In this document: piece after piece, positions 4,593 through 48,816 of the stretch
How the letters are laid out: the number at the start of each line of letters is the position of its first letter
Numbering within the stretch: the stretch's first letter is position 1
Sequence record: ON184125
From: Escherichia phage PC3
Reading direction: 5' to 3' (one strand)
Length of the DNA stretch: 64,000 bases
The notes under the pieces: generated by a model
The model's database searches: none
What the model saw: only the letters and a program-made list of their open reading frames with translations
Told to the model about the DNA's origin: nothing
Made by a program: the position numbers and the translations under genes

Positions 4593-5662
4593 TGGACCGC
4601 ATGCTGAAGGTTGCTAAGAAACACGATGACCAGGCTTCAGTGCTGTCCAAATCCGACGCTCTGGAACCGTCTATCATCTGTTCTACTGGTATTCCCCTGA
4701 TCGATATCGCATGGTCTGGGCGTATTGACGGTGGTCTGATCTCCGGTATCAAGATGATGGTGGGTGATTCCCGTACCTTCAAAACGATGTTCGGTCTGGT
4801 GGACGTCAAGGCGTACATGGACAAGTTCCCTGATGCTATCTGCGTCTTTGCGGACTCAGAAAAGGGTGCCAACGCCGATTACTGGACCTCTATGGGCATT
4901 GACATGGACCGCGTCCTGTACGTACCGATCGACAACGTTGAACAGACCAAGATCCGCTTGCTGCAGATCCTCCAGGAAGTCAAGAAAGGCGACCATGTTA
5001 TAATCTTCATCGACTCTATCAGCCAACTACCCTCCACCAAGGAAGTTGAAGATGCGATCAAAGGGAACGACACTCAAGACATGACCCGCGCCCGTGCCCT
5101 TAACAGCTTCTGGCGTGTCATGACTCCCGAAATCAACAGCAAAAATCTCGTGTGTGTTTGGATCAACTCCTATTACGATGAGATCGGCAACCAATATGCC
5201 GAGCCTAACATCAAAGGCGGCAAACAGGGCTTCTTATCCTCCAACTTGATCTGGTTTATCACCCGTTCTCAGGTGAAGGAAGACAAAGATCTGCTGGGTT
5301 GGAACTTCAACATAAGCATCATGAAAGGTCGCCATGTCAAAGAGAAAGCCAAGCTCCCTGTGACGGTACTGTACAACGGTGGTATTGATCGCTGGAGCGG
5401 CCTGCTTGAGATCGCTCGTGCTCTGGGTTATGTTGATATGCCGTCTTCCGGTTGGTATGTGCGTACAGCCAAGGGTGGTTTCGATCCTGAGAAGGAAAAG
5501 AAATATCAGAAGCGTCAGATGGATGATGATTTCTGGTATCCGCTGCTGGAGAATGTCAACTTCGCCGATGACGTGAAGAAAATGTTCGGTGTTTCTAACG
5601 GTACTGTTATGCCTGCTAACATGCTGGAGCAAATGGACCATGTTATCAACACAAGCGAATAA
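4577..5662 (+). CDS. uvsX: UvsX recombinase (RecA-like strand-exchange protein)
   Basis: Extended similarity to T4 UvsX from memory: FKTMFGL, FPDAICVFADSE, VIIFIDSISQLPSTKEVEDA, DMTRAR, GRHVKEKAKL, NGGIDRWSGLLEIARALGYV. Confidence 0.92.
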   Translation: MASSLMDRMLKVAKKHDDQASVLSKSDALEPSIICSTGIPLIDIAWSGRIDGGLISGIKMMVGDSRTFKTMFGLVDVKAYMDKFPDAICVFADSEKGANADYWTSMGIDMDRVLYVPIDNVEQTKIRLLQILQEVKKGDHVIIFIDSISQLPSTKEVEDAIKGNDTQDMTRARALNSFWRVMTPEINSKNLVCVWINSYYDEIGNQYAEPNIKGGKQGFLSSNLIWFITRSQVKEDKDLLGWNFNISIMKGRHVKEKAKLPVTVLYNGGIDRWSGLLEIARALGYVDMPSSGWYVRTAKGGFDPEKEKKYQKRQMDDDFWYPLLENVNFADDVKKMFGVSNGTVMPANMLEQMDHVINTSE

Positions 5663-5969
5663 CAGTGGAGGGGGAGGAGACTCCCCCAATAACTACACAA
5701 TCATCGACCCTGGTGCTGATCAGCTGGCGATCATCAAGATCACTTCTGGCAAATTCCGTGGTGTTCAATTCCGGTTCGGCAAGGTGGCCATCAACGAAGT
5801 GGACTGCGAACCCCGCCTGTCTTTCGTGACTGATATATTGAAGAAACCATTGCGTCTGATGTTTGTGAATTTGAAAGAAAATGACTTGTTCACTGAGGTG
5901 TCAGGGGATATCCTTGTAGACCTCATGCAGCGTAATGCTCAGGAATATAATAAATTTTTGGTGGGGTAA
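5640..5969 (+). CDS. hypothetical small protein (start uncertain)
   Basis: ORF between uvsX and the helicase; in-frame ATG at 5640 overlaps the uvsX 3' end; a GGGGGAG/CTCCCCC hairpin lies inside the 5' region. Confidence 0.3.
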   Translation: MLSTQANNSGGGGDSPNNYTIIDPGADQLAIIKITSGKFRGVQFRFGKVAINEVDCEPRLSFVTDILKKPLRLMFVNLKENDLFTEVSGDILVDLMQRNAQEYNKFLVG

Positions 5970-5976
5970 GTGGCCA

Positions 5977-7401
5977 ATGTTACTCGAATCTGTCGTGCTT
6001 TCACAGTTGATTTACAATGAAGATTACCAAAGAAAGATCCTGCCGTACCTGAAAGCCGATTATTTTGACAACGAAGGCGAAAAGGTCATCTTTGGTCTGA
6101 TTGACAGTTATACCTCAGAGTACAATGCCCGCCCGTCTGTCGAAGCACTATCTATAATTCTTGAACGGACAAAGCTGAACGAATATGTGTTTGACCAGGC
6201 GGTATCTGCCCTGGAGAACATCAACGACAACACCTTCAATGAAGAGTGGCTGGCGAAGGAAACCGAGGCTTGGGCGCGACAAAAGGCCGTACACAACGCA
6301 ATCAAGACCGCCGTTAACATCTACGGTGACGAGAAGCGCAAGGACGAGATGAACAACATCCCGACCATGTTGCAGGAAGCCCTGGCTATCCGGTTTGATT
6401 CATATCTCGGTCACATCTATTGGGAGATGGCGGCAGAGCAGTATGACCACATGAACTCCAACGAGGCCAAGATCCCGTTCGCAGTTGAGATCTTCAATAA
6501 GGCGACACGTGGTGGCGTTGGTAAGAAGACACTGAACATCGTAACAGGTGCGATCAACGCAGGTAAGACCACAACGCTGATTGACCTGACCGCAGGGTAC
6601 TCGGAGCAGGGGCTGAACGTCTTTGTCTTCACCCTTGAAGTGGCCGAGAACGTCTGGCGACACCGTCTTGATGCCCGTATCATGCGTCGCGACTTTGAGT
6701 CTTTAGAGAAACTCACAAGGCACGAGTATATTGCAACGATAGAGAAGCTCCGCAGTCGCCAAGATGGTGCGCCCAAGGGTGATATCGTCATCAAGGAATA
6801 TCCTTCCGGTACTGGACACACAGGTTTATTCCGCCGCGATATCCTTGAGTACATCCAGGCAACTGGTCGTGCTCCTGATGTTATCGTTATTGACTATCTT
6901 GGCGAAGCTGCTTCCTCGCGCCTGCCTGCCCACCTGATGCAGAACACGAACGTCTATTACACGTCTGTGGCTCGTGAGTTTCGTGCGCTGGGATTTGAGT
7001 TTGATGTCCCTGTATGGACTGGTATGCAGTTCAATCGTGAGAATCAGAATAGCACTGATGGTGGAATCAGTGATTTGGCAGATGCTATCGGTATTCCGAA
7101 GGTGGCCGACTTCATCATGGCATTCTATGCTCCTGACGAACTGGCGGCGGTCAAGAAAGCCCGAGCCTCAATACTCAAGAACCGTTATGCCAACAAGCAG
7201 AAGCTGAAATCATTCCTGTTTGGTATGGACCAAGACAAACAGATCCTGTTTGACCTGGACTGGAATGAAGTTAAGAAGGACCTGACTGAGGCTGAGGCCA
7301 AATATGTCGAAAACGTACACATCAAACATGACCTCAACAAGTCCGGAGCTGCTGCCAGCGATGAGCAGAAAGCCCAAACGGTCAATAATTGGAAATTCTA
7401 G
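5977..7401 (+). CDS. replicative DNA helicase (T4 gp41 / DnaB family)
   Basis: N-terminus resembles T4 gp41; Walker A TGAINAGKTT; start placed at MLLESVV giving 474 aa (T4 gp41 is about 475 aa). Confidence 0.85.
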   Translation: MLLESVVLSQLIYNEDYQRKILPYLKADYFDNEGEKVIFGLIDSYTSEYNARPSVEALSIILERTKLNEYVFDQAVSALENINDNTFNEEWLAKETEAWARQKAVHNAIKTAVNIYGDEKRKDEMNNIPTMLQEALAIRFDSYLGHIYWEMAAEQYDHMNSNEAKIPFAVEIFNKATRGGVGKKTLNIVTGAINAGKTTTLIDLTAGYSEQGLNVFVFTLEVAENVWRHRLDARIMRRDFESLEKLTRHEYIATIEKLRSRQDGAPKGDIVIKEYPSGTGHTGLFRRDILEYIQATGRAPDVIVIDYLGEAASSRLPAHLMQNTNVYYTSVAREFRALGFEFDVPVWTGMQFNRENQNSTDGGISDLADAIGIPKVADFIMAFYAPDELAAVKKARASILKNRYANKQKLKSFLFGMDQDKQILFDLDWNEVKKDLTEAEAKYVENVHIKHDLNKSGAAASDEQKAQTVNNWKF

Positions 7402-7465
7402 GCAATTCAATAAAGCGGGTCATAGGGTATAATTCTATGATCTGAATGTAAACCAGGAGCACATC

Positions 7466-7801
7466 ATGTCACACAATGATTTTATGGCTGGCCTGGTGCA
7501 GGCCGCCAAACAGGTGTGCCACACCAAACAAGCGATTGAGCTGAGTCCGGAGCAGACTCTGGAGTTCTTCAACAATCGTAAAATCTGGGAGGAATATGGA
7601 ATTGGTATGATATGCCAAGAGGGTGAACTCGTACAGCTGGATCTACCGTCATTTCCCCTTCCAGTGCGCACCAACACAGTGGAATGGTATACGACGGAAG
7701 ATGGTGTAGAGATCATCCCGAAGTTCCAGTATCACTCAATCGTAAACTTCTTTTTACGCCGTTGCGGGACTAATCTGATCCCACAAGGTATGAGATCTTA
7801 A
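7466..7801 (+). CDS. hypothetical protein
   Basis: 111-aa ORF preceded by TATAAT at 7428-7433 and RBS-like AGGAG. Confidence 0.45.
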   Translation: MSHNDFMAGLVQAAKQVCHTKQAIELSPEQTLEFFNNRKIWEEYGIGMICQEGELVQLDLPSFPLPVRTNTVEWYTTEDGVEIIPKFQYHSIVNFFLRRCGTNLIPQGMRS

Positions 7802-7816
7802 CAAGAGGAACACCAA

Positions 7817-8131
7817 ATGTCTGTAGAACAAATCGGCTTTTATGTACTACCATCTGATCCTGAATCCCGTCGCAAGCTGATAGGTGCAATTGAAAACTGT
7901 CGTGCCGCCCAGGTCCGCATCAAGTCGGAACAGACTTTCATTACTGAGACTCTGGCCGAGCTGGCGAAAGACACGGGTATCAAGGCCAGCGACTTGCGCA
8001 AGGTTGTATCCGACCGCGCCAATGGAACTTACCATAAGACGATCGAAACGAGCGAGAAATATCAAGACTTATACGAGTCTCTATTCCCGAACGCCAAGCC
8101 CGATCGAGACCCGAATGTCAGTGGCGAATAA
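7817..8131 (+). CDS. hypothetical protein
   Basis: 104-aa ORF with RBS-like AGAGGAA upstream. Confidence 0.45.
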   Translation: MSVEQIGFYVLPSDPESRRKLIGAIENCRAAQVRIKSEQTFITETLAELAKDTGIKASDLRKVVSDRANGTYHKTIETSEKYQDLYESLFPNAKPDRDPNVSGE

Positions 8132-12385: not shown

Positions 12386-12602
12386 CAAGAAGTACATGTA
12401 CAAGGTTCTGCTGAGCCTCGGGGTGTCACAATCTGGGCTGGCTCGTTTATTGGATTGTTCTAATGTTGTGAACTACTGGGCGAAGGGTTATCGTGTTGTC
12501 CCCCGCTCCTTCCGTCGCTTCATCCTGGTGTTACAGTTCATCAAGAAGAAAGGGCTGATGGAAGAGTTATTGCAATTTATTAAAGAAGAGGAACGCAAAT
12601 GA
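12351..12602 (+). CDS. HTH (XRE-like) DNA-binding protein
   Basis: LGVSQSGLARLLDCSNVVNYWAKG resembles a Cro/C1-type helix-turn-helix. Confidence 0.4.
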   Translation: MSLRMKELPVNDKKYMYKVLLSLGVSQSGLARLLDCSNVVNYWAKGYRVVPRSFRRFILVLQFIKKKGLMEELLQFIKEEERK

Positions 12603-13294
12603 ACTATACCCGAGCGTTGGTTTCTATCCTTGAAAGGTCTTATTCTCGCAATCTGATTGGGTATTCAGAAAGACACCATAAAGAACCCAGGAGCTTGGGA
12701 GGGACTGATACTGCGGAGAATATTGCTGTTCTAACTGCTCGGGAACATTTCATAGTTCACAAACTTTTGGCCAAGATATTCAGTATGTCTCCTGCATACG
12801 TGAAAATCTTTTCTTTGATGAGAAATATATCAAAATCACAAACTTCACGCCAATACGAAGAGTTCGCTCTCAGAAAATGGGAAAGGGTGAAGACAGCTAA
12901 CAGCACTCCAGAGTTTAAACAAAAATGCAGTGAAAGATTCAAGGGGGTGGCGTTATCCCGTGAACACAGATCGAAAATTTCCGATTCGCTGATGGGCAGA
13001 CCCAAATCAGATTCACAACGTTCCAAATTAAAACAAATCCATTCAAAGCCTTGGGAAAGTCCAAATGCGACACATACCCGCAAATATTGGGCTTTGGCAG
13101 GAATATTCTATGATTGGTGGGTAGCCGATGGTGCCAGGTTAGGCATATGTCGAAATGTAACGATGGTCAAGGAATTGGGGGTGGATCGCGCCGAAATGAC
13201 CGCCAAAAGTTGCATACAAAGATTTCAAAAAGGATGGGTGCCGTACAATGATGAGAATTGGGTTAAGTTTTTCGAGGAAATGAAAAATGCGTGA
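12599..13294 (+). CDS. HNH homing endonuclease
   Basis: HHKEPRSLGGTDTAENIAVLTAREHFIVH HNH motif; C-terminal FQKGWVPYND module shared with the two other endonuclease ORFs. Confidence 0.8.
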   Translation: MNYTRALVSILERSYSRNLIGYSERHHKEPRSLGGTDTAENIAVLTAREHFIVHKLLAKIFSMSPAYVKIFSLMRNISKSQTSRQYEEFALRKWERVKTANSTPEFKQKCSERFKGVALSREHRSKISDSLMGRPKSDSQRSKLKQIHSKPWESPNATHTRKYWALAGIFYDWWVADGARLGICRNVTMVKELGVDRAEMTAKSCIQRFQKGWVPYNDENWVKFFEEMKNA

Positions 13295-25507: not shown

Positions 25508-26839
25508 TTATAGGCCAAGAGCCTTTTCAAGGTCATCAAGGTCTTCAGTGTAAAGATCGATGTCCTCTTTCTTACTTAATTCCTTATATTGTGCTTCAAG
25601 GTTCTCAATCTGCTTGAGTAGGCGCTCACGGGCGTCCAGAGTAATAGACGACAGAGGCATCTTGAACAACTCGTCAAGATCACCACCAAAGTCCGGGTAG
25701 TCCTGCATGAACAGAGACTTCAGCACGTCAATCTTTTGGCGGAGATCAACACGCGTCGCCCATTCAATGAACACCGCCCGGTCACCCAGCTTGCGGATCC
25801 TGTCTGCCATGTCCTTCAACAGATACTGGCGACGGTCTTCGTACCGTGACAGGCGATAATTGAAGAACGGCAGCAACATGTCCCGCCAACCAGAATAACG
25901 ATGAATAACACCGTCTTCATCCCAGGCTGTCCAAACAGGCTTGGTGGCTGAATACAGTTTGAACATCTGCTCAACCTGCTCGTCACTCAGCTTAGAGAGT
26001 TCGCCGCGCTTAAACACAACCGTGATATCCCAGCCATCTTCGGTCGTGTCGTTGGCGTACTCGGTGAGGATACCTGCCTTGTACAGAGGCAGCAACACCT
26101 TGGTCTCATAGGTTTTGGCAAACCAGCCCACTGGGACTTCGGTGATATGCAGGGTCGTGGCATTGACCCGACGGAAGATACCACGACTGTATGCTCTTCC
26201 TTCCTCAGTATAGCCTGTCTCTCCTTTGAAGCCGTTCCAGTACGGTTTTAAGTCTTTCGGGTCTTCGCCACGGAGAAGCGCTCTCAGGGCATTCAGCACG
26301 GACTTAACGCAATGACACGGGGTGTCGGTGGAATATCCGGTGCCGATACCATTGATCCCATTCACCAGGAACATGGGTAGGATGGGCAGAAAGAACTTCG
26401 GCTCCAGCCTTTCTTCACCAAGGTAGTTGTATTCCAAGATACCCTCATCCTCCTTGCGGAAGATCTTGCGGATAACGTCAGATACAGCGACGGATATGTA
26501 TCGGGCAGATGAAGCATCACGCCCCATGATAGAACCAAACTGGCCATCGCGGTCAAAGTACGGGATGTTGTTCGTGCCTGGGAACCCCTGAGCCATGTTC
26601 ACGATAGTGCCGCTCATGTTCTCACCACCAGACTTGTAGTTGGTGCGAGCGGCGGCGAACATACCAAGGCGGTCAACAATCTCCTCCTTGTTGTACTCAA
26701 GAGCAGCGAAAAGGATCTTGCGCTGGCTTGGCTTGAGGCTGTCAATCAGCTGAGGGATTTGACGGATGCTGTTGACCACAGAAAACTGTTTATGGTCAGT
26801 GTTGACAAAGTCCGTTACAGTAATGCTCTTAGCAACCAT
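25508..26839 (-). CDS. DNA topoisomerase II medium subunit (T4 gp52-like, GyrA-type)
   Basis: N-terminal region resembles T4 gp52 (PSQRKILFAALE); start moved to internal Met at 26839 with GAGG RBS, giving 443 aa (T4 gp52 is 442 aa). Confidence 0.85.
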   Translation of the reverse strand: MVAKSITVTDFVNTDHKQFSVVNSIRQIPQLIDSLKPSQRKILFAALEYNKEEIVDRLGMFAAARTNYKSGGENMSGTIVNMAQGFPGTNNIPYFDRDGQFGSIMGRDASSARYISVAVSDVIRKIFRKEDEGILEYNYLGEERLEPKFFLPILPMFLVNGINGIGTGYSTDTPCHCVKSVLNALRALLRGEDPKDLKPYWNGFKGETGYTEEGRAYSRGIFRRVNATTLHITEVPVGWFAKTYETKVLLPLYKAGILTEYANDTTEDGWDITVVFKRGELSKLSDEQVEQMFKLYSATKPVWTAWDEDGVIHRYSGWRDMLLPFFNYRLSRYEDRRQYLLKDMADRIRKLGDRAVFIEWATRVDLRQKIDVLKSLFMQDYPDFGGDLDELFKMPLSSITLDARERLLKQIENLEAQYKELSKKEDIDLYTEDLDDLEKALGL

Positions 26840-26840
26840 C

Positions 26841-28739
26841 TTATTCATCCTCAGTTTCAAATAGGCAAACATCGCTAAACCAGGTTTTGCGGTAATCGGC
26901 GGCCTCGTCACCGAAGCCATTCTTCAGTGACTGTTGATAGCCATCGTCCAGCGTGACCGTCGTAGTATACGCATCCAGGTTGTTTAGAATACGTTTGAAG
27001 TCTTCAGTGCTGTTACCACCCAGACCTTTCAGATATTTCTTCTTCGTGATCTTCTTGGCATCAGGCGTCTTCAGGAACTCCTCATACTCTGCGTTGTTCA
27101 TGAACTCATGCATCACCTTGCCACACCACACACGCATGTAAGGGGTGCGCAGGAGCTTCAGCCTGCCCTGACGGACGTACTCCGGCCAGTAGGTGCAATA
27201 CAGGGTGATCAACAACCCACGGATGTGAATGCCGTCATCGTCCGCATCGGTAGCCACAACAGTCTGTGGGTAACGGGTGATGTCAAGGGGCTGGCCTGGT
27301 ACTGCACCGCCGTGGATCGTACACAGGTTCTTGAACTCTTCATTGTTCATCACCTTTGAGCGCGGGGCGTTCAGGCAGTTGATGAACTTACCACGAAGCG
27401 GGAACAACCCGATCTTCTTGGTGTCGCGGGCGTTCAGGATAGGATTGGAGGCACTATCACCCTCTGTCAGCAACAGGGAGCATCCGCTGCGGTCACCACG
27501 GGCGGTCGCCGGGTAATACTTCTCAATCTCACGATAATCCCGCTTGCTGATGTCCTTCTTGGCCTTTTCAAACTCAGCATCATCCTGCTCATTGCGCAGG
27601 GAAGCCAGTTCTTTGCTCAGACCAGCCGTAACGAACTCAAGCGCCTTGCGGATCAGTTTATCGCTGGGCTTGTACGACGTACCGAACTGGCTTACAGGAG
27701 TGGTCATGCGCTCCTTGGTCTGGCTGTCAAAGCGCGGGTTGTTGATGTCGGCGGCGATGAACAAGGACATGTGGTTCTTGATCATTGCTGGCTTCAGTTC
27801 GGTCTTGAACTTCTTCACCAGCTGGGGACGAATCGCTGCCACGATCTGGTCAGCAACATAATCAACGTGAGGACCACCGATGTGGGTGGCAATAGAGTTC
27901 ACGTATGATGCGTGCATGAACGTACCGGATGAAGGGGCTACAGCAACAGACCAATCCCCGGTTTCGTCAACAGCCGAACCAGCATGGAAGTAATCAACGA
28001 AGTGGCCAAAGCGGTCAATCCGGATTTGCTTCCCATTGAGAACAATCTTCAGGCGCGGGTTACACGCAGCCACTTCAAACGCGCGGCGATAGATCATCAG
28101 CAGGTTGTTCTGGTCAAGTCCTTTGACGCCCAGACGAGCATAGTCAGGGATCCAGGCGATGGATGTGCCGGGACTGTTCACGTTGCTGATGACTGGGTTA
28201 GATTTCTTGCTCATGTTGTCTTCAAACGTCTGAGTATAAGACTTCTTGCCGTCATTAGTCGTGACGCGGAACCATTTGGAGAACACGTTGACGAGGGACG
28301 CCCCTTCGCCATTCTGACCACCGGACTTCTGGTTGTTGTACTCTTCGTCTTCGTCGTTGAAGTTCGATCCTGCAAACAATTCTGAAAATAACATTTCTGG
28401 CAACCACATACCAGATTCATGCTTGACCACAGGGATACCCCCGTTGTCAGCAACGATGATTTGACCGTTCATCGGGGAAACTGTGACGGTGATTTCCGTC
28501 AGGGATTTACCCTCAGGGGTCTTGCTGTGGTCAACACAGTTGGTGATGATTTCATCAAACTGTTTGATAAGAGCGGGGTTATATTCAAAATTGTCTTTAA
28601 ACACAACTTTGTCTTTGCTGAGATCATATACCCAAGCCATCCCGACAGAAGAACGGATACTCCCTAGATGGCGCTCTGGGCGAAGGAGTATATGCTCGAT
28701 GTGTGAGAGCTTTTTGTATTTTCTGTTTACATCAACCAT
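26841..28739 (-). CDS. DNA topoisomerase II large subunit (gp39/gp60-type, GyrB-like ATPase plus Toprim)
   Basis: GHKL ATPase N-terminus and Toprim LLLTEGDSA motif; uninterrupted 632 aa. Confidence 0.9.
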   Translation of the reverse strand: MVDVNRKYKKLSHIEHILLRPERHLGSIRSSVGMAWVYDLSKDKVVFKDNFEYNPALIKQFDEIITNCVDHSKTPEGKSLTEITVTVSPMNGQIIVADNGGIPVVKHESGMWLPEMLFSELFAGSNFNDEDEEYNNQKSGGQNGEGASLVNVFSKWFRVTTNDGKKSYTQTFEDNMSKKSNPVISNVNSPGTSIAWIPDYARLGVKGLDQNNLLMIYRRAFEVAACNPRLKIVLNGKQIRIDRFGHFVDYFHAGSAVDETGDWSVAVAPSSGTFMHASYVNSIATHIGGPHVDYVADQIVAAIRPQLVKKFKTELKPAMIKNHMSLFIAADINNPRFDSQTKERMTTPVSQFGTSYKPSDKLIRKALEFVTAGLSKELASLRNEQDDAEFEKAKKDISKRDYREIEKYYPATARGDRSGCSLLLTEGDSASNPILNARDTKKIGLFPLRGKFINCLNAPRSKVMNNEEFKNLCTIHGGAVPGQPLDITRYPQTVVATDADDDGIHIRGLLITLYCTYWPEYVRQGRLKLLRTPYMRVWCGKVMHEFMNNAEYEEFLKTPDAKKITKKKYLKGLGGNSTEDFKRILNNLDAYTTTVTLDDGYQQSLKNGFGDEAADYRKTWFSDVCLFETEDE

Positions 28740-29562
28740 TATTATCTCCGTAAAATTTCAACCAGGCGGGATCTTCTTTTGGTATCCAACCTTTCTGAAA
28801 TTTAGATATACAAGTTTGAGCTGTGGCCTTAGAACAAACAGAGCTTAACCCGGTTTCTTTCAACATTAAACAATAACGGTTCTTCACTTTGTCTTCACCG
28901 TTACTATACCACCATTCAAAGAATTCACCAGCCAAGAGCCATTGTCGGGATTTACCCGTCTTTACGACAGTCGGGTGTTCCCAAGGTTGTATGTTATTCA
29001 TGGGATTGTTCTGGCGCCACATAGCAGAATACCTCTCCCTTTCTTCTGGTCGCCTCATCCGTTCGGTGACTGATTTGGTAAGATTGGCTTTGTGTGCTTC
29101 GGAGTGTGGTATCCCTTTCCTGGATTTTGACAACCTGCGCCTTGATTCGTCATTCCAAGTGTAACCTCTCAAACTATCCGCACGTTTCTTCTGTACTTCT
29201 GGGTTCAATGAGTTTTTCTTGGATTGCTTACGACAACGTTCCTTTTGTTCATCAGATGACATCACTTCTTTCATTCTGGTGGAATTATTTCTCCTCAATT
29301 CCCCAAACTCTTTGTTGTTCCTAGACATGTTGTTCATCCCAGTCCATGCCTTCCTGATACCGGGGTTGAGTGGTTTTGTTCTCCAAAGTAAGTGATGTAC
29401 GACATAATGTTCTTCTGGTGTCAACCATACAAGATTAGAGAAGTGGTTAGTGCCACCCAAGCACACAGGGATTATATGGTGGCGTTCTTGATAAACGCCA
29501 TCCATTTTACCTCTCTGTATTGCTCTCTGTATGAGAGCGTCTAAGATGATTTCGTATTTCAT
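28732..29562 (-). CDS. HNH homing endonuclease
   Basis: HHIIPVCLGGTNHFSNLVWLTPEEHYVVHH motif; C-terminal FQKGWIPKED module. Confidence 0.8.
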   Translation of the reverse strand: MKYEIILDALIQRAIQRGKMDGVYQERHHIIPVCLGGTNHFSNLVWLTPEEHYVVHHLLWRTKPLNPGIRKAWTGMNNMSRNNKEFGELRRNNSTRMKEVMSSDEQKERCRKQSKKNSLNPEVQKKRADSLRGYTWNDESRRRLSKSRKGIPHSEAHKANLTKSVTERMRRPEERERYSAMWRQNNPMNNIQPWEHPTVVKTGKSRQWLLAGEFFEWWYSNGEDKVKNRYCLMLKETGLSSVCSKATAQTCISKFQKGWIPKEDPAWLKFYGDNNG

Positions 29563-30140
29563 AAGCCAAATTTGCTACGCCACTTTTCAACCTTGTGTTC
29601 AATAGCGTGCTCCACTTTAATGCGAGTGGCCATCAAAGAGGATCCACGGATCGCCCCTTCCCCACACCCCATGCGCGCAACATGCTTGATTAGGTCATTG
29701 ACGAGTTGATCCAATCTGTCTTGACTGCGATAAGGCTGGTTACACAATCGGATAATCCGGCCATGATAATGATGGATAAGATTCAGATGCTTTTGAGGAT
29801 CACGATCAATCAGACGGAACCAGTCTTCTTCCAACAGATTAGAAGAAATATCGTTCACTATCGCCATGTGGTTGATGACAGAGTCGATCATTTCGGCCTT
29901 GTTCATAGAGCCGCGCATTTGGACGTCGTCATAATCCATGACGTACAGAAGGTCAATAGCAGAGATAATGACATCAGCAACTTCGCCATTCAACGGCTCG
30001 GAAGATACTATGCCATGAAACACATCAGACAGTTCACAGATCTCTTCACCTAGTTTGTTCAGAACAAACACAGGCGAACGGTCTGGGGTATGAGCAGTGC
30101 AGTCATAAGAAGTGTCGACGATAGTGTGTAGAAATTTCAT
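29559..30140 (-). CDS. MazG-like all-alpha NTP pyrophosphatase (candidate)
   Basis: LGEEICELSD and EVADVIISAIDL resemble the MazG EExxE/ExxD pattern. Confidence 0.4.
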   Translation of the reverse strand: MKFLHTIVDTSYDCTAHTPDRSPVFVLNKLGEEICELSDVFHGIVSSEPLNGEVADVIISAIDLLYVMDYDDVQMRGSMNKAEMIDSVINHMAIVNDISSNLLEEDWFRLIDRDPQKHLNLIHHYHGRIIRLCNQPYRSQDRLDQLVNDLIKHVARMGCGEGAIRGSSLMATRIKVEHAIEHKVEKWRSKFGL

Positions 30141-30640
30141 TTCAAAGTTCCTTGTATGCGGAGACGATTAATGTGGGCAATGATATAGTCCATAGAGTTT
30201 TGAAAACTGTATTTCCCGTTCTGAACATATGCATGGATCAGGGGTAGGCGACTGTACGCCAATCTGATTTTCAGACGTTCAGGCATTGTCTGGAGTTTCA
30301 TACTAGTTGCAAATAGGATATCGCGCTTGAATTCTTCGGTGGACGGGTCCAGGACAATGACGCGAGAAGCCGCCAATCCCTGTCCATATTGCTTGGCCTC
30401 ATAACCGTCGAGCAGGCGCAGGTTGTCATCCCTATACTTCAGCCAATACCAGTACCCCTCCATGGAGTTGAACACACCATGTTCATGGGTAGTCATTGGA
30501 TGATGGGTAAAATGCGAGAGGAAGCGCCCGAGTTCCGTCTGGCTCCGGCTATAGATGTTGAAGTGATTCTTACCCTCTGTTGCAGGGGTCATCTTGTTCT
30601 GTGGAACGTTCATTAACAGCATCATGATGTAGTTTCTCAA
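30137..30640 (-). CDS. hypothetical protein
   Basis: 167-aa ORF. Confidence 0.5.
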   Translation of the reverse strand: MRNYIMMLLMNVPQNKMTPATEGKNHFNIYSRSQTELGRFLSHFTHHPMTTHEHGVFNSMEGYWYWLKYRDDNLRLLDGYEAKQYGQGLAASRVIVLDPSTEEFKRDILFATSMKLQTMPERLKIRLAYSRLPLIHAYVQNGKYSFQNSMDYIIAHINRLRIQGTLK

Positions 30641-30667: not shown

Positions 30668-30865
30668 TTACTTCTTCATGCAGCCCATATAACTACAGGC
30701 CAAGCCGATAGCGGCGAATACGATAGCCAGGACAAATCGGGTTATCTGCATTTGTGGTATTGTGAGCAGCCCGATCACGTTTTCGATCGTCAGGAAGAAA
30801 CACACCCCAGCGACGACACCGAATTTGAACGAGTTTCGTTCTTTGTAGATCTTGAACCTGAACAT
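30668..30865 (-). CDS. small membrane protein
   Basis: 65-aa ORF, two hydrophobic helices. Confidence 0.3.
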   Translation of the reverse strand: MFRFKIYKERNSFKFGVVAGVCFFLTIENVIGLLTIPQMQITRFVLAIVFAAIGLACSYMGCMKK

Positions 30866-30910: not shown

Positions 30911-31411
30911 CTAGCCCAGAAACACTACTAAAGTCAAATTAGTGAGGGCGCTGCGACCTTCCCGCAGCATTTCATGCGCAGATGCAAGGCGCTTGGGGTC
31001 ATGCAACGTATCAGAGAACACGATGATGTTTGCTTTATCGATGTCCGTGCCCATGTAATGGGAGATGGTTGTCGTGTGCTGTTTCTTGTCTACATCGGGC
31101 AATGATACATCCGCGCCTGCTCGGGAGCGGAAGAAAGAATCGCGTTCACTAACGCTATGGAAGACACCCATGATGTTGAGGTTGTTCTCTGTCTGGAAAT
31201 CATAGGACAGAATCTTCTTCAGCGCGGCGGTGTGCCCAGTCTGGCGCAGCATGCGATAGTACAGTATGTTTCCAGGACAGGTGGGGTCCGTCACACCTCC
31301 CCTCGATTGGCGATCTTTCTGGATTTCATACGCATCCAGGATAAGTTGTTGGACCATTTCAATATGGGCAGTCAGGGAGATTTCGACTTTACGTTTGACC
31401 ATGGATTTCAT
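30911..31411 (-). CDS. hypothetical protein
   Basis: 166-aa ORF. Confidence 0.5.
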   Translation of the reverse strand: MKSMVKRKVEISLTAHIEMVQQLILDAYEIQKDRQSRGGVTDPTCPGNILYYRMLRQTGHTAALKKILSYDFQTENNLNIMGVFHSVSERDSFFRSRAGADVSLPDVDKKQHTTTISHYMGTDIDKANIIVFSDTLHDPKRLASAHEMLREGRSALTNLTLVVFLG

Positions 31412-31479
31412 TTGGTGTATCCTCAGTTAGGTTCCGCTCATGGGGAACGGGTCCATTATACACCAAATGCTGGAAATGA

Positions 31480-31501
31480 AAAAGAGGCCGGAGCCTCTTT
31501 T
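31480..31501 (-). terminator. rho-independent terminator (AAAAGAGGC-CGGA-GCCTCTTTT)
   Basis: 9-bp GC-rich stem, tetraloop, T-run on the minus strand; core GAGGCCGGAGCCTC shared with 33557-33578. Confidence 0.6.
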
Positions 31502-33593: not shown

Positions 33594-35156
33594 TTACTTG
33601 TACAGACCTGTCACGTCAATAGACTTGTGCTGGCGGTTGTACTCAGCAGTGTAGTCATCCAACACCAGGTATTCACAGCAGCGGATCTTGCTGGAGCCAT
33701 AGTCGTTGGTAATAGACACGATGTCTTTCGGGTTCAGCTTACAGCGAACAACGCGCTGGCCAACAGAACCGAAGCACTGTTTCAGATAGGCCAGGGAGCA
33801 AACGTGCAAACCGTATGAACACAGGTCAGAGTTGTTGTCGTTCACGAATGAGCGAGCCATCCGCACGATAGTGCCTGGGGCGTTGCTGATCGTGTTGCTG
33901 TGCTTGTCCATGTAGTTGCCGCGCACCGATTTGTAGAGGATGATGTCACCATCGTCGTCAATTTCGATGTCAGAGTACGCCATGAACTCATAGATGCGCC
34001 CAGACTGAACCAGAGAAGCTGACGGGTTCTGGAACATTTTGTCCATAAACTTCGCCATGCGGTCCAGGTTGTGGAAGTCACCCTTCAGCATCAGCGCCAG
34101 TACACGCTTGGCGATGGATGTGCCTGTGATGTCATGACCGGACCAGCGGACACGGTTGTCAGACACGTCTACCAGACCAGCAGCGTACTTCGCGATGGCT
34201 TCACGAGGGCGCATCAGCGAGTATGCCAGCTTCACGTCTTTGTCTTTGATCGCCTGTACGATGCGGTCATAGGCCGGGTGTGAAGTGGTGATCGTTTCCG
34301 GCTTGCCGTCAATCGCGATAACAACGCTGTCAGGCAGAATCAGGATCTGGTGTTCGTTCAGGAACACGTCCAGGTCTTTCGCTCCGAAGTCCTGCTTGGT
34401 CTTCTTGTCATCAGCCACTTCTTCAACATCTTTGATGGCGACGGTGAATTCTACAGAAGACAGAGCCAGACGCAGGGTGCGACCGAGGATGCCATCAAAG
34501 TAACCAACACGGCGACGGGCATCCAAGGATCCACGAATAGGATAGGTTTCCCCGTCAACCACAACGCTGATTTCAACGTTGCTCGGAACTTTGTCCGCAC
34601 CTTCTGACAACGCCACAGAAATTTCTGCCATCTTGCCGATATCTTCAACATCGAAAGCGCGACTATCACCTTCCACAGGAGTCAATTCAGACTTTTCAAA
34701 GAAAGCCCCTTTGAAATTGTCGTCGTTAGTGAGACACAGATACTTGTTGTGGTTCGGCAGATATGCCCCAACATACCATTCTGTGCCATCTTTGTCTTTG
34801 GCCGTGCCGCCCGGTTGGACCTCGAACACTTCTTGTTCTTCCGGCTTGATAGGAGAGATCACAGTTACCTTGTTTTTCTCCTCGGTAATCCGGACCAACA
34901 GGGCACGGGCGATCGTCTTGGCGCTTACAGCAAAGAACTCAGCCAGGGCACGGTTGCTTTCACCAGCCTTGCTCTTCATCTGAATCTGCTGAATCTCTTC
35001 AGTGGTAAGAGATTTCAGCGATAACGGGTTGACACCGAGTTCCGTGTCTGCAACACGTTGTACAGTCGAGCGGGGTATGCCCAACAGAGTAGCAATTGCG
35101 CTCTGGCTTTTGCCTTCCTTCAAATGCTTCAGGATCTTTTCTTCAATCTTGTTCAT
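33594..35156 (-). CDS. rIIB-like protein (candidate) with N-terminal HTH
   Basis: Immediately downstream of the rIIA-like gene on the same strand; start moved to MNKIEEKILKH; HTH-like SQSAIATLLGIPRSTVQRV. Confidence 0.35.
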   Translation of the reverse strand: MNKIEEKILKHLKEGKSQSAIATLLGIPRSTVQRVADTELGVNPLSLKSLTTEEIQQIQMKSKAGESNRALAEFFAVSAKTIARALLVRITEEKNKVTVISPIKPEEQEVFEVQPGGTAKDKDGTEWYVGAYLPNHNKYLCLTNDDNFKGAFFEKSELTPVEGDSRAFDVEDIGKMAEISVALSEGADKVPSNVEISVVVDGETYPIRGSLDARRRVGYFDGILGRTLRLALSSVEFTVAIKDVEEVADDKKTKQDFGAKDLDVFLNEHQILILPDSVVIAIDGKPETITTSHPAYDRIVQAIKDKDVKLAYSLMRPREAIAKYAAGLVDVSDNRVRWSGHDITGTSIAKRVLALMLKGDFHNLDRMAKFMDKMFQNPSASLVQSGRIYEFMAYSDIEIDDDGDIILYKSVRGNYMDKHSNTISNAPGTIVRMARSFVNDNNSDLCSYGLHVCSLAYLKQCFGSVGQRVVRCKLNPKDIVSITNDYGSSKIRCCEYLVLDDYTAEYNRQHKSIDVTGLYK

Positions 35157-43945: not shown

Positions 43946-44145
43946 TTTGGTTCCTTGAATATTTTGTAACCAGCAGCGCCGATAGACATCACCGCGCCAA
44001 TACAGTACATCACAGTCACGTTCAACTTCTCTGAGGTTGTTAAGTCCAGAGGGGTGAAATGATAGGCTAGGGCAGTACACATTGAAACGGCTGCCATAAC
44101 CAGACCAATGAACAACAGATAATTAGACAACCGTTTCATGATCAC
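43942..44145 (-). CDS. small membrane protein
   Basis: 67-aa ORF, two hydrophobic helices. Confidence 0.35.
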   Translation of the reverse strand: MIMKRLSNYLLFIGLVMAAVSMCTALAYHFTPLDLTTSEKLNVTVMYCIGAVMSIGAAGYKIFKEPK

Positions 44146-45740
44146 CCCTTCTTCATCAGGTCAAGGAGAGAGCGCGACGCTGCCTTCGTTGCTTCTGGCT
44201 GGGCGCTCGCCTTGGTTTTAGTTTTGGATGCCTTCTGCGGCTTCTCAGGCACTCTGTGCGCCAAAGGGTTGCTACCCTTAATCTTGCGCAACATTGGTGT
44301 GGTGTCGCAATATTTTTGAAACTCTTCTTTGGACAACCCTCTCAATCCAACAAAATCTATAATAAAACTACCAATAAAGTGGAGAGGGGCATCGAAGAAT
44401 TTCAGTATATTCCAACCAACTGCCTTTACACCATTTTCATTCGCTGCCTTTGCAATGAACAACTCATTCTGAGAGTCTGGTTCAAGTTCGTATCCGATGG
44501 CAGCGTACTCACTCATGATCTTGACGTGATCCTTGGTGTATTGTTCATTTCTTCCCCAGCCAGTGTCCTTCGCCGCCTTACCAGAACGACCGATGATACG
44601 TTTGTCGTAATCTTCCCGCGCTTGGTAAATAAAGGAGATGAATGCCATGTTGTTGAACCCCAAGTCCTGGTGTACGAACTCGGGACGCCATCGATGGCTC
44701 TGCATCATAGGTTCCCCCTCCAAGATGATAGTTGCATCTTTGAACTTTATTTTGAGATACTTCAACAACGAATTGGCCATCTCAGAAGACTTGAGAGTGG
44801 AGTGTATGAAATCCATAGAAGTCCATGATGCTAGACCTGATTTGTTGGACACTGTATACTTGCCGATGAACACCAGATTGATTTCCTTGAACCAAAACCC
44901 AACCTGGATCATCTTCTTGTCGAATTCGTATTCTATGAGTTCTGGCTCATATTTGGTTCTCAACCACTCAAGGAATTGAACGACACGAGTCCCCTTTCCC
45001 GTTCCACTTGTCCCGCGAATAACGACAATACCCGGCGTCACGCTAGAATTTATCATAGTCATAAAACGTTTGTCCTCTTTGGGAATCCAACCATCTTTAA
45101 ACATGGCGATCATATTACGAAAGACGCTCTCATCGCCCTTTAGATTACGATACTCTGTGTCCAGTAGTTTAGAATACCACAATCCGATAGATTTGTAACC
45201 ACATCCTCGTTTTGGTATACAGGTAGGATTCACAGTACCACCGTTATTCACCCATCTATCATAGATCCTACGGGCGTCCTTCCAAACCCACCAATAACCA
45301 TTTGAAACCATGAATGGGTAGGGAGAATTACCCCTGTTCTCCTTTATTGATTTTATTACACGCTCCCGGTATTCTGGATCATCCCAAGGATTTATACCAG
45401 ATTTGTATTTCTTGCCAGTCCTGGCCAACGCCGCCTTAAATTGGTTTGGTATGATAGAATTGTCTCCTCCCAATTTCAGGTTCAGACATAATGGGTCCAA
45501 CAGTAACTCTTCCGTAACAATAATAGACTCCAGGTCGGATGCCTCCAACCTGGTTTCAAACTTTTCTATTATCGTCTTTAAGAATTCAGAAGCGGGGTGA
45601 GATTCCAACAACCTTTTGATGATAACACCAGAACCCATATAGGGGTCTTGTTCGGGGGCGCATGAACAAGACCGAATCCCGACGTAGAATCTCCCAGTTG
45701 GGACATGGGTTATCCTATATGTGTAATGGTAGCGAGCCAT
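44142..45740 (-). CDS. GIY-YIG homing-endonuclease domain fused in frame to a P-loop kinase domain
   Basis: N-terminus YTYRITHVPTGRFYVGIRS...YMGSGVII (GIY-YIG); FKDGWIPKEDKRF module at about aa 215; C-terminal half has Walker A GTSGTGKGT, IGKYTVSNKSG and ILEG, paralogous to the 1228-1887 kinase. Confidence 0.7.
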   Translation of the reverse strand: MARYHYTYRITHVPTGRFYVGIRSCSCAPEQDPYMGSGVIIKRLLESHPASEFLKTIIEKFETRLEASDLESIIVTEELLLDPLCLNLKLGGDNSIIPNQFKAALARTGKKYKSGINPWDDPEYRERVIKSIKENRGNSPYPFMVSNGYWWVWKDARRIYDRWVNNGGTVNPTCIPKRGCGYKSIGLWYSKLLDTEYRNLKGDESVFRNMIAMFKDGWIPKEDKRFMTMINSSVTPGIVVIRGTSGTGKGTRVVQFLEWLRTKYEPELIEYEFDKKMIQVGFWFKEINLVFIGKYTVSNKSGLASWTSMDFIHSTLKSSEMANSLLKYLKIKFKDATIILEGEPMMQSHRWRPEFVHQDLGFNNMAFISFIYQAREDYDKRIIGRSGKAAKDTGWGRNEQYTKDHVKIMSEYAAIGYELEPDSQNELFIAKAANENGVKAVGWNILKFFDAPLHFIGSFIIDFVGLRGLSKEEFQKYCDTTPMLRKIKGSNPLAHRVPEKPQKASKTKTKASAQPEATKAASRSLLDLMKKG

Positions 45741-46834: not shown

Positions 46835-47181
46835 TTGTCTTCCTCAACTTTATCGTAGCCTGTAGCAACACACTGTTCTTCGGTACAATCTGCATACAGA
46901 ACGACGGAGGCCTGCTTCACGTAGGTGATGCAGTGGTAAGTTTCGTCTTCCTGGATGGAATCGTCATAATTGCAGACAGTTTGGAGCGGACCCGGAGTAG
47001 TGTTGTCCAGTGCTGCATGCGCCTTGATGGTGTCTTCCATCTTGGACACGGCCTGCTCATTGGTGAACGTCGGCGTGTCAAGGTCTACAGTAGAAGCAAC
47101 GCCCAGAAGGGTGGAACACGCAGTGGTAGAGAAAGCCAGAGCACACACCAGAAGAATCTTATTGAGTTTCATTTCAATCAC
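46831..47181 (-). CDS. putative lipoprotein
   Basis: Signal-peptide-like N-terminus with lipobox-like FSTTAC; several Cys in the mature part. Confidence 0.4.
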   Translation of the reverse strand: MIEMKLNKILLVCALAFSTTACSTLLGVASTVDLDTPTFTNEQAVSKMEDTIKAHAALDNTTPGPLQTVCNYDDSIQEDETYHCITYVKQASVVLYADCTEEQCVATGYDKVEEDK

Positions 47182-47202
47182 CTGTTTGTCAAAGGGTTAA
47201 CA

Positions 47203-47220
47203 GGGGGAATTATATCCCCC
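47203..47220 (-). terminator. hairpin GGGGGAAT-TATA-TCCCCC downstream of the DNA polymerase
   Basis: Perfect 7-8-bp stem between the polymerase stop (47235) and the next gene start (47181). Confidence 0.4.
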
Positions 47221-47234
47221 TTTGGTTTATTGAA

Positions 47235-48816
47235 TCAACCTTTCTTCTTTTGCATCATGGCAAGAAGGTTCACACGGCGCTTGTGTGACCAGCCGACCAC
47301 GTCGAGGATAGACTGAATCGGATCAATGAAGGACTTCTCAAAGGCCGCCTGATAATCCACCCATTTGCCCAGACCAAGCTCCTCGGGGAAGAACTCAGGA
47401 TATGCAAAGTAGTTCTGCCCAAACGGGTTGCCCGGCTTCAATAACACCATCTGTACCTTATCACCCGACTCGATCATCGGTAGACCCAGATCTTCGTTCT
47501 TCTCAACCAGACGGTTGTAGCCCACACACGCCTTGGCAGCAAAATGAGCACCAGATATAAACGAGCCGTCAGCAGCCACACACTTCTCTATGTCGGACAC
47601 GCCTGACGCCTTGGCGATATCGTCTACAGAGAGTTTCATGTACTCCTCTTTGTACTGGGAGATGAGCGTCTGTACTTCCTCTTCGGTGCCGAGTAGGATC
47701 TTCTCATAACACTTGACAAGACGCTCACGACACCATTCCGGCGTGGTGGACTTGCGGGCTTCCAGACCTTTGAACTTGATCTTCGGCTTCTCATACTTGA
47801 TACCCTCACTGTCGTACACGGCCATGGCATACATCTTCTTGGCTCGCCAGACAGCGGCTGACGCAATGACCTCACGCTCCCATACCATACGCTGTTCAAA
47901 TCCGTTCATGGTGTTACACAGAAGCTGTGCCCACTCATTGGTCTTCGGCTGGTAGTTGTCTTTGATCCATTGGTCGATATTATCAACCATAGCATGATGG
48001 TCAGTAACATCAGGCCACAACTGCTTGACAAGACGCTCAATGCAGATGTAGTTGGAGTCGGTATCACCTGCGATGACGAAGTCCTGGCCTGTTGTACCAC
48101 ACAGCTTGTTCAGATAGTCATCAGTGTAACGCTTGTTCCACTTGTTGATCAGCTGACCGGATGTGGTGATGGCTTCGGCAATGTTGAGGTTGAAGTACTC
48201 TTTGAACCAGACGTTCGAGATCGCGCCATAACCTGCGTTCATCAAGATCTTCAGACCTTGCTGTAGGGTATCTTGAGCGACGCCCAGGTCTTCCCACTTC
48301 TTCATCACTTCGGTCAGGGCATCAAGATCAATGTTCTTGTGCTCTTCATACCACTCTGGGTCATAGTAGCGAGACTTCATGGCAGACTCAAGATGGAAGT
48401 CGCCCTTCGACATCTCTTTACACCAGCCAGCCCACTGCTCATACTTCAGACCCTTGGCCTTCTCTACTTTACGGTCGCTGTAGATACCACGCATGATTTC
48501 AGACAGGAACGACATCTTCTCGTTGCTGAAGAATTGAACGTTCGGTGTGAACGACACGTTGTAGCGGCGCAGGGTTTCAAAGTGGAACTCACCCAGGGCA
48601 ACCAACTCATCAACAACCTGCAGGCGTTCGTCAACCGCACGCAACAGCTTGTCGTGAAGGGCTTTCATCAACCGACGTTTGTGCATCGGCGTTGCCATGT
48701 TATTCATCTGAGCAGCCAGCTCTTCACACATAGCCTCAATAATCTCGCGGCGCTGGTGTTTGTCGCCAACGATAGTCTCAGGACCGAGGTTGTACTGCTG
48801 AATGATGTGTGGATAT
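47235..48816 (-). CDS. DNA polymerase (family B) exon 2: second half of motif A through C-terminus
   Basis: Starts with YPHIIQQYNLGPETI matching T4 gp43 YPSIIRQVNISPETI; contains motif C VIAGDTDSNYICIE; both exons together are 3000 nt in frame. Confidence 0.85.

Follow-up and report, generated by a model that had tools for sequence, protein, structure and literature searches.

A probable two-module MazG-like pyrophosphohydrolase of Escherichia phage PH4, encoded outside the thymidine-replacement module

Introduction

Small MazG-like enzymes are nucleoside-triphosphate (NTP) pyrophosphohydrolases. In MazZ of phage S-2L, the pocket is built by two chains, one of which gives the ion ligands and K31, whereas the other gives K76, N80, W85, and R94; C-terminal residues of this partner chain complete the pocket (PMC8342488). 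D60 of MazZ lies 3.0 Å from the guanine 2-amino group, and I56 and D60 have been taken as markers of guanine specificity (PMC8342488). A further phage MazG-like enzyme, Atd1, has been reported to deplete (p)ppGpp and to protect against TIR effectors (bioRxiv 10.1101/2022.06.09.495361); its host phage, PcCB7V, is a Certrevirus. Here, we describe a MazG-like gene at positions 29559–30140 (minus strand) of the window, meaning the whole stretch of 64,000 nucleotides that was analyzed (Escherichia phage PC3, record ON184125). The window is identical to positions 91896–155895 of Escherichia phage PH4 (ON184126.1; Ackermannviridae, Aglimvirinae), that is, to the last 64 kb of PH4, and we refer to the gene and its product by that phage.

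Phages of the family Ackermannviridae, among them ViI, CBA120, LIMEstone, and relatives, find wide use in therapy and biocontrol, and only part of their nucleotide metabolism has been mapped. We consider it probable that the PH4 gene encodes an Mg2+-dependent pyrophosphohydrolase of the MazG superfamily, in which two fused modules form one composite site, and that it is an early gene outside the module for 5-hydroxymethyldeoxyuridine (5-hmdU).

Results and discussion

The gene and its assignment to the MazG superfamily

The open reading frame (ORF) begins with ATG, encodes 193 residues, and is labeled "hypothetical protein" in the PH4 record (coding sequence PH4_000151). It is a real, conserved phage gene, and some 276 Ackermannviridae records contain full-length homologues. 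Fifty homologues share 48–98% identity and have lengths of approximately 190–208 residues, except for one 147-residue fragment, and tblastn found the gene in 278 phage records, the hosts in their names being essentially all typical of Ackermannviridae. When 1.8 billion representative proteins were searched exhaustively with a profile, only 34 relatives were returned, among them a few full-length proteins at 24–39% identity and about 25 single-module proteins of approximately 100 residues, referred to below as one-module relatives. The MazG assignment is already present in the automated annotation of many related records. Some orthologues carry the label "viral tegument-like protein," which we regard as an annotation artefact.

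The first-pass annotation of the window, made from the sequence alone, had noted motifs of the EExxE/ExxD type in this ORF, and both were found. The first metal-binding motif, EExxE, is represented by EEICE (residues 32–36, containing E32, E33, and E36; 30033–30047, minus strand), and the second, ExxD, by EVAD (residues 53–56, containing E53 and D56; 29973–29984, minus strand), with a spacing of 16 residues. Such a motif alone is weak evidence because, among the 388 frames in the window that stay open for 60 residues or more, the loose form (E..E-x12-28-E..D) occurs 12 times; the stricter form with EE..E occurs twice. Conservation is more telling. Across 26 aligned homologues, which reach down to 49% identity, E32, E33, E36, E53, and D56 do not vary, and syntenic homologues at 24–30% identity retain them almost without exception; the five residues align with E34, E35, E38, E50, and D53 of MazZ. 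All metal-binding residues are thus kept on alignment.

At the level of profiles, the 193-residue protein matches PHROG 1247, "MazG-like pyrophosphatase," with an E value of 1.6e-35. The Pfam family MazG is matched by 11 of 31 remote relatives, and a Seunavirus relative passes its gathering score (22.9 bits versus 22). When the profile of the 26 family members was compared with the one-module relatives using hhalign, probabilities of 99.4–99.6% were obtained. The one-module profile in turn matches solved structures, namely YpjD 2GTA and 5IE9 at an E value of 5e-4, and 1VMG, 2Q73, and MazZ (7ODY) at E values of 0.016–0.03 (0.025 for MazZ). The AlphaFold2 (AF2) model of the protein is all-helical, with eight helices (predicted local distance difference test [pLDDT] score of 93.4 and predicted template modeling score of 0.91). 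In Foldseek searches against the PDB, the top matches were the dimeric dUTPases of staphylococcal phages (5MYD, 5MYI, and 5MIL; probability 0.75–0.98), and the Trypanosoma brucei dUTPase was also found; fold matches among viral models were NTP pyrophosphohydrolases, including a putative dUTPase of PhiW-14. Membership of the MazG or all-α NTP-pyrophosphohydrolase superfamily is well supported, and the earlier proposal of a MazG-like pyrophosphatase agrees with the PHROG match, the invariance of the five acids, and the matches of the relatives to Pfam MazG and to solved MazG structures.

Two modules with complementary losses

The one-module relatives share a set of motifs: PxR; a lysine followed by EExGE (K..EExGE); a loop of the form (I/L)N(Q/K/R)PxR, which sits between EExGE and ExAD; EPLxGExAD with an Asp seven residues further on; and a terminal KxxKW. 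In the PH4 protein, this set is divided between the N- and C-terminal halves. The N-module (residues 5–97; 29850–30128, minus strand) is a MazG-like unit, predicted to have four helices, that has kept the metal-binding acids; it matches the one-module family at an hhalign probability of 99.6% (E value of 9.7e-25) and covers positions 1–92 of that family. When the 26-homologue alignment was compared with the alignment of the one-module family, the probability was 99.4%. The C-module (residues 109–193; 29562–29816, minus strand) is a second, degenerate unit that covers positions 13–104 in the same order, with a probability of 96.6%, an E value of 4.8e-10, and a score of 54.4. As a control for the C-half, 100 column shuffles gave a mean score of 10.6 (SD 2.2, maximum 17.6), and a score of 11.4 resulted when the sequence was reversed. 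The register is also visible by eye, with HYHGRIIRLCNQPYRSQD aligned to EEIGEVSKALNQPHRCDE, and the eight helices of the AF2 model correspond to two modules of four helices each.

Each half has lost what the other has kept. The N-module retains K29 and all the acids, and in it "SDVFHGIVSS" replaces the NQPxR loop and "LEEDW" replaces KxxKW, the lysines being gone. In the C-module, "HYHGR" replaces EExGE, there is no ExxD, and no acid is conserved in distant homologues. What this module keeps are the NQPYR loop (residues 134–138; 29727–29741, minus strand), which is found in this half only, and KVEKW in the last helix (29580–29594, minus strand), which corresponds to the KxxKW end of the one-module family. 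N134, Q135, P136, R138, K183, K186, and W187 are all invariant in the alignment of 26 homologues, and K183, K186, and W187 are so in distant homologues as well.

On the evidence of these profile comparisons, the PH4 protein is an internal duplication, with two tandem MazG-like modules in one chain, a feature that is described here for the first time. Complementary loss of this kind would be the expectation for a fused homodimer that had two sites, each built in trans, and retained only one of them, and the pattern is compatible with the pocket that two chains build in MazZ (PMC8342488). Judging from the sequence, the single chain probably forms a pseudo-dimer whose halves share one composite active site.

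It could be argued that a protein that has lost the catalytic acids from half of its length is a catalytically dead binding or regulatory protein, similar to the dimeric dUTPases of staphylococcal phages that moonlight as derepressors, and the fact that the top PDB folds are the signaling dUTPases 5MYD, 5MYI, and 5MIL would fit this idea. We consider it very unlikely, since neither the five N-module acids nor the basic loop and the KxxKW helix change in a family that reaches 24–30% identity, which is the pattern of a working site.

Proposed activity and evidence weighing against it

We propose that the gene product acts as an Mg2+-dependent pyrophosphohydrolase of nucleoside triphosphates (or of an alarmone) and consists of two tandem four-helix modules of approximately 100 residues. 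Ordinary MazG enzymes are tight dimers of identical chains in which each pocket takes its acids from one chain and residues of the C-terminal region from the partner. After duplication, the two halves may have degenerated in a complementary manner, leaving the acids in the N-module and NQPxR and KxxKW in the C-module, so that a pseudo-dimer fold with one composite active site would be expected. This site is predicted to cleave the α–β phosphoanhydride, yielding a nucleoside monophosphate and pyrophosphate. The gene would belong to the early region, be translationally coupled to the upstream NADAR-like gene, and descend from the small MazG-like gene found in T4-like phages at the corresponding position before topoisomerase II, and it would not take part in the 5-hmdU (thymidine replacement) module. 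The homology, the duplication, the conservation pattern, and the synteny are seen in the comparisons; catalysis and a single active site are our inference. If this is correct, the protein would be a clear case from nature of a homodimeric enzyme whose duplicated copies degenerated in complementary ways, and its single composite site is predicted to be sensitive to mutations in both halves.

Several observations weigh against this proposal. Profile searches, which the first-pass annotation had suggested as a check, gave the strong PHROG 1247 match mentioned above, but in direct scans of the 193-residue protein, neither Pfam (including PF03819, MazG, and PF01503, PRA-PH) nor NCBIfam yielded any family at E ≤ 1. 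Sequence searches of the PDB with the protein or the family profile gave weak matches, MazZ being found at E values of 0.3 (single sequence) and 0.16 (profile). A match to IMPDH in the same searches was spurious. The Foldseek matches in the PDB had E values of only 0.18–0.6 and template modeling (TM) scores of 0.40–0.55. With regard to the duplication, a direct hhalign comparison of the N-half with the C-half was not significant (p value 0.35–0.9), for which reason the duplication is argued via a third family, the one-module relatives, which the full-length profile had itself been used to find. Finally, a literature search on MazG in Ackermannviridae gave no functional work and no activity data for any member of the family.

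Relationship to the 5-hmdU module

The plus strand of the window carries, at 1228–4592, a complete pre- and post-replicative 5-hmdU module. Its genes encode a 5-hmdU DNA kinase (HMUDK; 1228–1887; PF18748, E value of 3.6e-109), a thymidylate-synthase homologue that is a candidate dUMP hydroxymethylase (1887–2933; PF00303, E value of 2.3e-15), a dNMP kinase (2930–3499; label taken from related phage records), a gp56-like enzyme of the dimeric dUTPase/dCTPase family (3496–4050; Pfam dUTPase_2, E value of 6e-9; PHROG 173, E value of 4.5e-40), and a phage ACT-like protein (4050–4592; PF24021, E value of 3.5e-79). In many RefSeq and pharokka-annotated records of Ackermannviridae and Vibrio phages, the HMUDK orthologue is labeled "terminase small subunit," which looks like a propagated misannotation.

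Previous studies of Ackermannviridae have reported only thymidine to be replaced, by way of 5-hmdU and hypermodification (PMC5889632, PMC8989533, PMC3184105, PMC11721090). Kutter et al. showed that CBA120 does not incorporate thymidine; in their proposal, the thymidylate-synthase-like protein acts as a dUMP hydroxymethylase, and the gp56-like dUTPase doubles as a dTTPase (PMC3184105). In line with such a role, an enzyme of phage 15599 with the dimeric-dUTPase fold hydrolyzes dTTP and dUTP and does not hydrolyze 5-hmdUTP (PMC13458397).

It had been suggested that the MazG-like gene encodes an enzyme additional to that at 3496–4050 and that two such enzymes would fit the exclusion of more than one canonical deoxynucleoside triphosphate (dNTP) from the phage DNA. 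The first part stands, both proteins being members of the all-α NTP-pyrophosphohydrolase superfamily, and the two can be told apart by profile: the dUTPase_2 profile (PF08761) that matches the 3496–4050 product finds no match in the MazG-like protein. The second part is not borne out. In addition to the reported replacement of thymidine only, the MazG-like gene lies 25 kb from the 5-hmdU cluster, in the early region between rIIA/rIIB and topoisomerase II, and its phyletic distribution follows a pattern of its own. Erwinia phage phiEa2809 has the gp56-like gene, and in it an NADAR-like gene abuts topoisomerase II directly; there is no MazG-like gene at the syntenic site, and no copy was detected elsewhere in that phage. 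Among Vibrio phage records, 66 match the gp56-like gene and 45 match HMUDK, and none matches the MazG-like gene (tblastn, E ≤ 1e-3). Conversely, the one-module relatives occur mainly in Vequintavirinae and in T4-like phages of Aeromonas, Cronobacter, Enterobacter, Proteus, and Klebsiella, groups that, with the exception of Klebsiella (also a host of Ackermannviridae), are outside the ten most frequent groups matching HMUDK. The MazG-like gene is therefore uncoupled from the 5-hmdU pathway in both directions, and because of this, exclusion of a second dNTP is not supported. Separating the gp56-like dUTPase/dTTPase candidate from the MazG-like enzyme prevents the wrong inference of a second excluded base.

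The same data bear on the idea that the MazG-like enzyme is a dTTP (and/or dUTP) pyrophosphatase that keeps thymidine out of the DNA and divides this work with the gp56-like enzyme. The phage does carry the 5-hmdU pathway, with HMUDK and the thymidylate-synthase homologue; a dTTPase was postulated when labeled thymidine was found not to be incorporated by CBA120 (PMC3184105); dTTPase activity is induced by hydroxymethyluracil (hmU) phages (PMC8989533); and the phage 15599 enzyme is a dTTPase/dUTPase with the dimeric-dUTPase fold (PMC13458397), the fold that also gave the best PDB matches of the MazG-like protein and, with the putative PhiW-14 dUTPase, one of its viral matches. Yet, the dTTPases that have been demonstrated or postulated are gp56-like, and PH4 has such an enzyme within the 5-hmdU cluster, 25 kb away from the MazG-like gene. 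The lack of a match to the MazG-like gene (E ≤ 1e-3) in phiEa2809 and in the 66 Vibrio records with a gp56-like gene, together with the occurrence of one-module relatives mainly in groups outside the top ten for HMUDK, likewise speaks against it. A dedicated dTTPase role is possible but less likely, and we rate this division of labor as distinctly unlikely.

Activity of the dTMPase type is known from hmU phages. A gene annotated in PH4 as 5'(3')-deoxyribonucleotidase, located near the DNA polymerase genes at approximately 46945–47724 of the window (minus strand; 137950–138729 in the record), could be of this type.

Locus, synteny, and origin

Along the minus strand, the order of genes is rIIA, rIIB (33594–35156), a gene for a MotB-like histone-like protein (30911–31411; PHROG 4164, "histone family DNA-binding," E value of 3.5e-76), an ORF of 65 residues (30668–30865; "putative membrane protein" in related records), a gene for a protein of 162 residues discussed below (30137–30625), the MazG-like gene, an HNH homing endonuclease gene (28732–29562; PHROG 655, E value of 2.7e-66; annotated as F-LimI in LIMEstone1), and the genes for the topoisomerase II large subunit (26841–28739, a single ORF of 632 residues) and medium subunit (25508–26848), the last in order. 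In T4, the large subunit is split into gp39 and gp60. The MazG-like gene shares an ATGA with each of its neighbors: at 30137–30140, its ATG overlaps the stop codon of the gene before it, and at 29559–29562, its own stop codon overlaps the ATG of the HNH gene. The MotB-like gene starts a closely spaced run of genes that includes the MazG-like gene, and the best sigma-70-like site of the region (10 of 12 matches) is located at 31455–31482, directly upstream of the MotB-like gene. Since a scan of the region gave promoter and terminator sites no more numerous than in shuffled sequence, we make no claim of an operon beyond the ATGA overlaps.

The position next to a homing endonuclease, pointed out in the first-pass annotation, is real, and the HNH gene overlaps both its neighbors, the MazG-like gene and that for the topoisomerase II large subunit, but the adjacency appears to be incidental. 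Divergent Ackermannviridae-like contigs carry full-length homologues of the MazG-like protein (26–29% identity) in the corresponding position upstream of topoisomerase II, and none of these syntenic contigs has an HNH gene there; it is absent from this site in contigs L003 and L005 and in phiEa2809. Because divergent syntenic relatives lack it, we interpret the HNH gene as a lineage-specific insertion. The window contains further homing endonuclease genes at 12599–13294 (plus strand) and approximately 44032–45528 (minus strand).

The one-module relatives were found in T4-like phages, in Vequintavirinae, and in one T5-like phage. In T4-like contigs, the small MazG-like gene (6001–6324 in L007; 6001–6621 in L008 and L009) lies between cef and the homologues of a Zn-ribbon gene (39.2-like) and gene 39, which is the same neighborhood upstream of topoisomerase II. 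In some of these contigs, it is fused to an unrelated N-terminal domain of approximately 100 residues. The most plausible view of the Ackermannviridae gene is that it arose by duplication and fusion from an old early gene held in common with T4-like phages, a relationship that is newly described here. In T4, the slot between cef and 39.2 is taken by goF, which was considered as a diverged relative and ruled out (hhalign probability of 0.1%); no BLASTP similarity was found between GoF and a fused, 206-residue relative.

Candidate substrates and the NADAR-fold neighbor

Residue D63 (29952–29954, minus strand), seven residues past the Asp of ExxD, is a candidate for contacting the base. With MazZ numbering offset by 6 relative to the paper, as confirmed by six residue identities in the alignment, K29, E33, D56, I59, and D63 of the PH4 protein correspond to K31, E35, D53, I56, and D60 of MazZ. 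Neither I59 nor D63 varies within the PH4 family or the one-module family; in other solved MazG structures, the D63 column holds Ser (1VMG) or Ala (2Q73). A guanine nucleotide (dGTP, GTP, or (p)ppGpp) is our leading guess for the substrate, held with low confidence. This hint rests on one aligned Asp/Ile pair, which is a further point on the negative side of the balance given above.

The possibility that the enzyme has no dedicated role in replacement or defense, and performs generic house-cleaning of damaged or noncanonical dNTPs (e.g., oxidized or deaminated ones) or trims the dGTP/dCTP pool, has to be weighed against such a specific substrate. House-cleaning is the default role proposed for the superfamily (Moroz 2005, as cited in PMC8342488; Mycobacterium tuberculosis MazG, PMC10014863), trimming of dGTP/dCTP pools has been reported for a cyanophage MazG, the one-module family is widespread in unrelated lytic phages, and the PH4 gene sits amid replication and early genes. 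The candidate pocket-lining elements D63, I59, and NQPxR are, however, strongly conserved, which suggests a specific substrate, and the gene has been lost in some lineages. On balance, we find this alternative unlikely.

The upstream neighbor, whose stop codon overlaps the ATG of the MazG-like gene, encodes a protein of 162 residues with an NADAR/YbiA fold (30137–30625, minus strand; AF2 pLDDT of 95.1). Foldseek matched its model to Escherichia coli YbiA (2B3W) with an E value of 5.6e-4 and a probability of 1.00, and to the NADAR structures 8BAT (0.99) and 8BAU (0.97). A Pfam scan of the protein gave no match, database labels are "hypothetical" or "virion structural protein," and an ORF of similar size is present at the same upstream position in the Ackermannviridae-like contigs examined. 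Phage NADARs (AdfN and T4 gp30.3) strip ADP-ribose from guanine in DNA and defeat DarTG1. Reports of them cover T-even and T5-like phages as well as Vequintavirinae (PMC11825919, PMC11543638), and the AdfN paper makes no mention of Ackermannviridae (PMC11825919). Judging from the modeled fold, the neighbor is likely an ADP-ribosylglycohydrolase of the AdfN type that acts against DarTG1.

In Aeromonas phage AhSzw-1 (contig L012; NC_047950.1, region 5001–7903), a one-module relative of 95 residues with all family motifs overlaps a Prs-like gene (Pribosyl_synth) by 4 nt and lies two genes from an NAMPT-like gene (NAPRTase family). This arrangement resembles an NAD+ reconstitution locus of the NARP1 type; among the papers listed in a literature search, none treated both NARP1 and MazG. 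The NADAR and NAD+-locus associations permit a counter-defense reading of the MazG-like gene and do not establish it.

Such a reading could take the form of an Atd1-type counter-defense enzyme that, early in infection, hydrolyzes (p)ppGpp or another defense nucleotide, perhaps together with the NADAR-like neighbor. We regard this as possible, if somewhat unlikely. There is a phage MazG-like precedent in Atd1, which acts on (p)ppGpp (bioRxiv 10.1101/2022.06.09.495361), and the invariant D63 and I59 align with the guanine-reading D60 and I56 of MazZ, where other MazGs have Ser or Ala in place of the Asp. The gene is coupled to one of the NADAR fold, phage NADARs being anti-DarTG1 factors (PMC11825919), the AhSzw-1 relative overlaps a Prs-like gene near an NAMPT-like gene, and both the early-region position and the distribution independent of DNA modification would fit. 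On the other hand, no Pectobacterium phage was among the best 60 tblastn matches of a Vequintavirinae member, a search in which Atd1 itself was not compared, and the cyanophage MazG does not hydrolyze magic-spot nucleotides, according to Rihtman 2019 as cited in PMC8342488. Moreover, the pair is not obligate, since phiEa2809 has an NADAR-like gene but no MazG-like one, and the adjacency could reflect shared early-gene history only.

A more elaborate version would be a two-gene early counter-defense cassette, in which the NADAR protein cleans ADP-ribose from guanine (anti-DarT1) and the MazG-like enzyme breaks down a guanine alarmone, or a nucleotide derived from ADP-ribose or NAD, that triggers or executes abortive infection. 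We consider this decidedly improbable. If it were true, the Prs-like and NAMPT-like context in AhSzw-1 would reflect a general, so far undescribed link of the MazG-like family to immunity based on NAD+ or ADP-ribose. Should the substrate be a guanine alarmone or a defense-related nucleotide, the gene and its NADAR neighbor would add a conserved counter-defense pair to this phage family. The reading that we prefer, a two-module pyrophosphohydrolase with one composite site, encoded outside the 5-hmdU module, is compared with known systems below.

Comparison with known systems

The small MazG-like NTP pyrophosphohydrolases (PF03819), which are homodimeric or tetrameric and include Bacillus subtilis YpjD (2GTA), Sulfolobus solfataricus SSO3215 (1VMG), and MazZ of cyanophage S-2L (7ODY), resemble the PH4 protein in the four-helix module, predicted for the latter, the EExxE and ExxD motifs at a spacing of 16 residues, the lysine before the first motif, and the basic C-terminal helix; the Asp seven residues after ExxD is shared with enzymes of the MazZ type. 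Unlike them, the PH4 protein has two fused modules, of which the second lacks the acidic ligands, and has no direct Pfam match. Within the window, where most genes are "hypothetical," the PH4 annotation lists neither purZ nor datZ; no search was aimed at these two genes.

The dimeric dUTPases and dCTPases (dUTPase_2; T4 gp56, the Campylobacter jejuni and trypanosomal enzymes, 5MYD, and phage 15599 gp18) belong to the same superfamily, have an all-helical chain of approximately 160–190 residues, and provide the best PDB folds. The PH4 MazG-like protein differs from them in having no dUTPase_2 match, in reaching TM scores of 0.40–0.55, and in being encoded outside the 5-hmdU cluster.

The tandem MazG of the E. 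coli type has two MazG-like modules per chain, as does the PH4 protein. E. coli MazG has 263 residues, is a dimer, and contains acidic motifs in both domains, which reportedly have unequal catalytic roles (Lee et al. 2008, cited in the Atd1 preprint). In the PH4 protein, by comparison, the acids have disappeared entirely from the second module and the basic elements from the first. Atd1 of Pectobacterium phage PcCB7V is similar by description only: it is a phage MazG-like protein encoded outside nucleotide-modification clusters and near counter-defense genes, and it has a guanine-nucleotide substrate. It is described as a single catalytic domain, whereas the PH4 protein has two modules.

The closest true relatives, with hhalign probabilities of 99.4–99.6%, are the one-module proteins (PHROG 1247), as found in Aeromonas phage 44RR2.8t, Salmonella phage PVP-SE1 (gp209), and Klebsiella jiaodaviruses. 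They share PxR, EExGE, NQPxR, EPLxGExAD with the following Asp, and KxxKW with the PH4 protein, as well as the T4-like position upstream of the topoisomerase II large subunit. They differ in having approximately 95–115 residues with all motifs in one module and are presumably homodimers, compared with which the PH4 protein appears as a fused, subfunctionalized duplicate.

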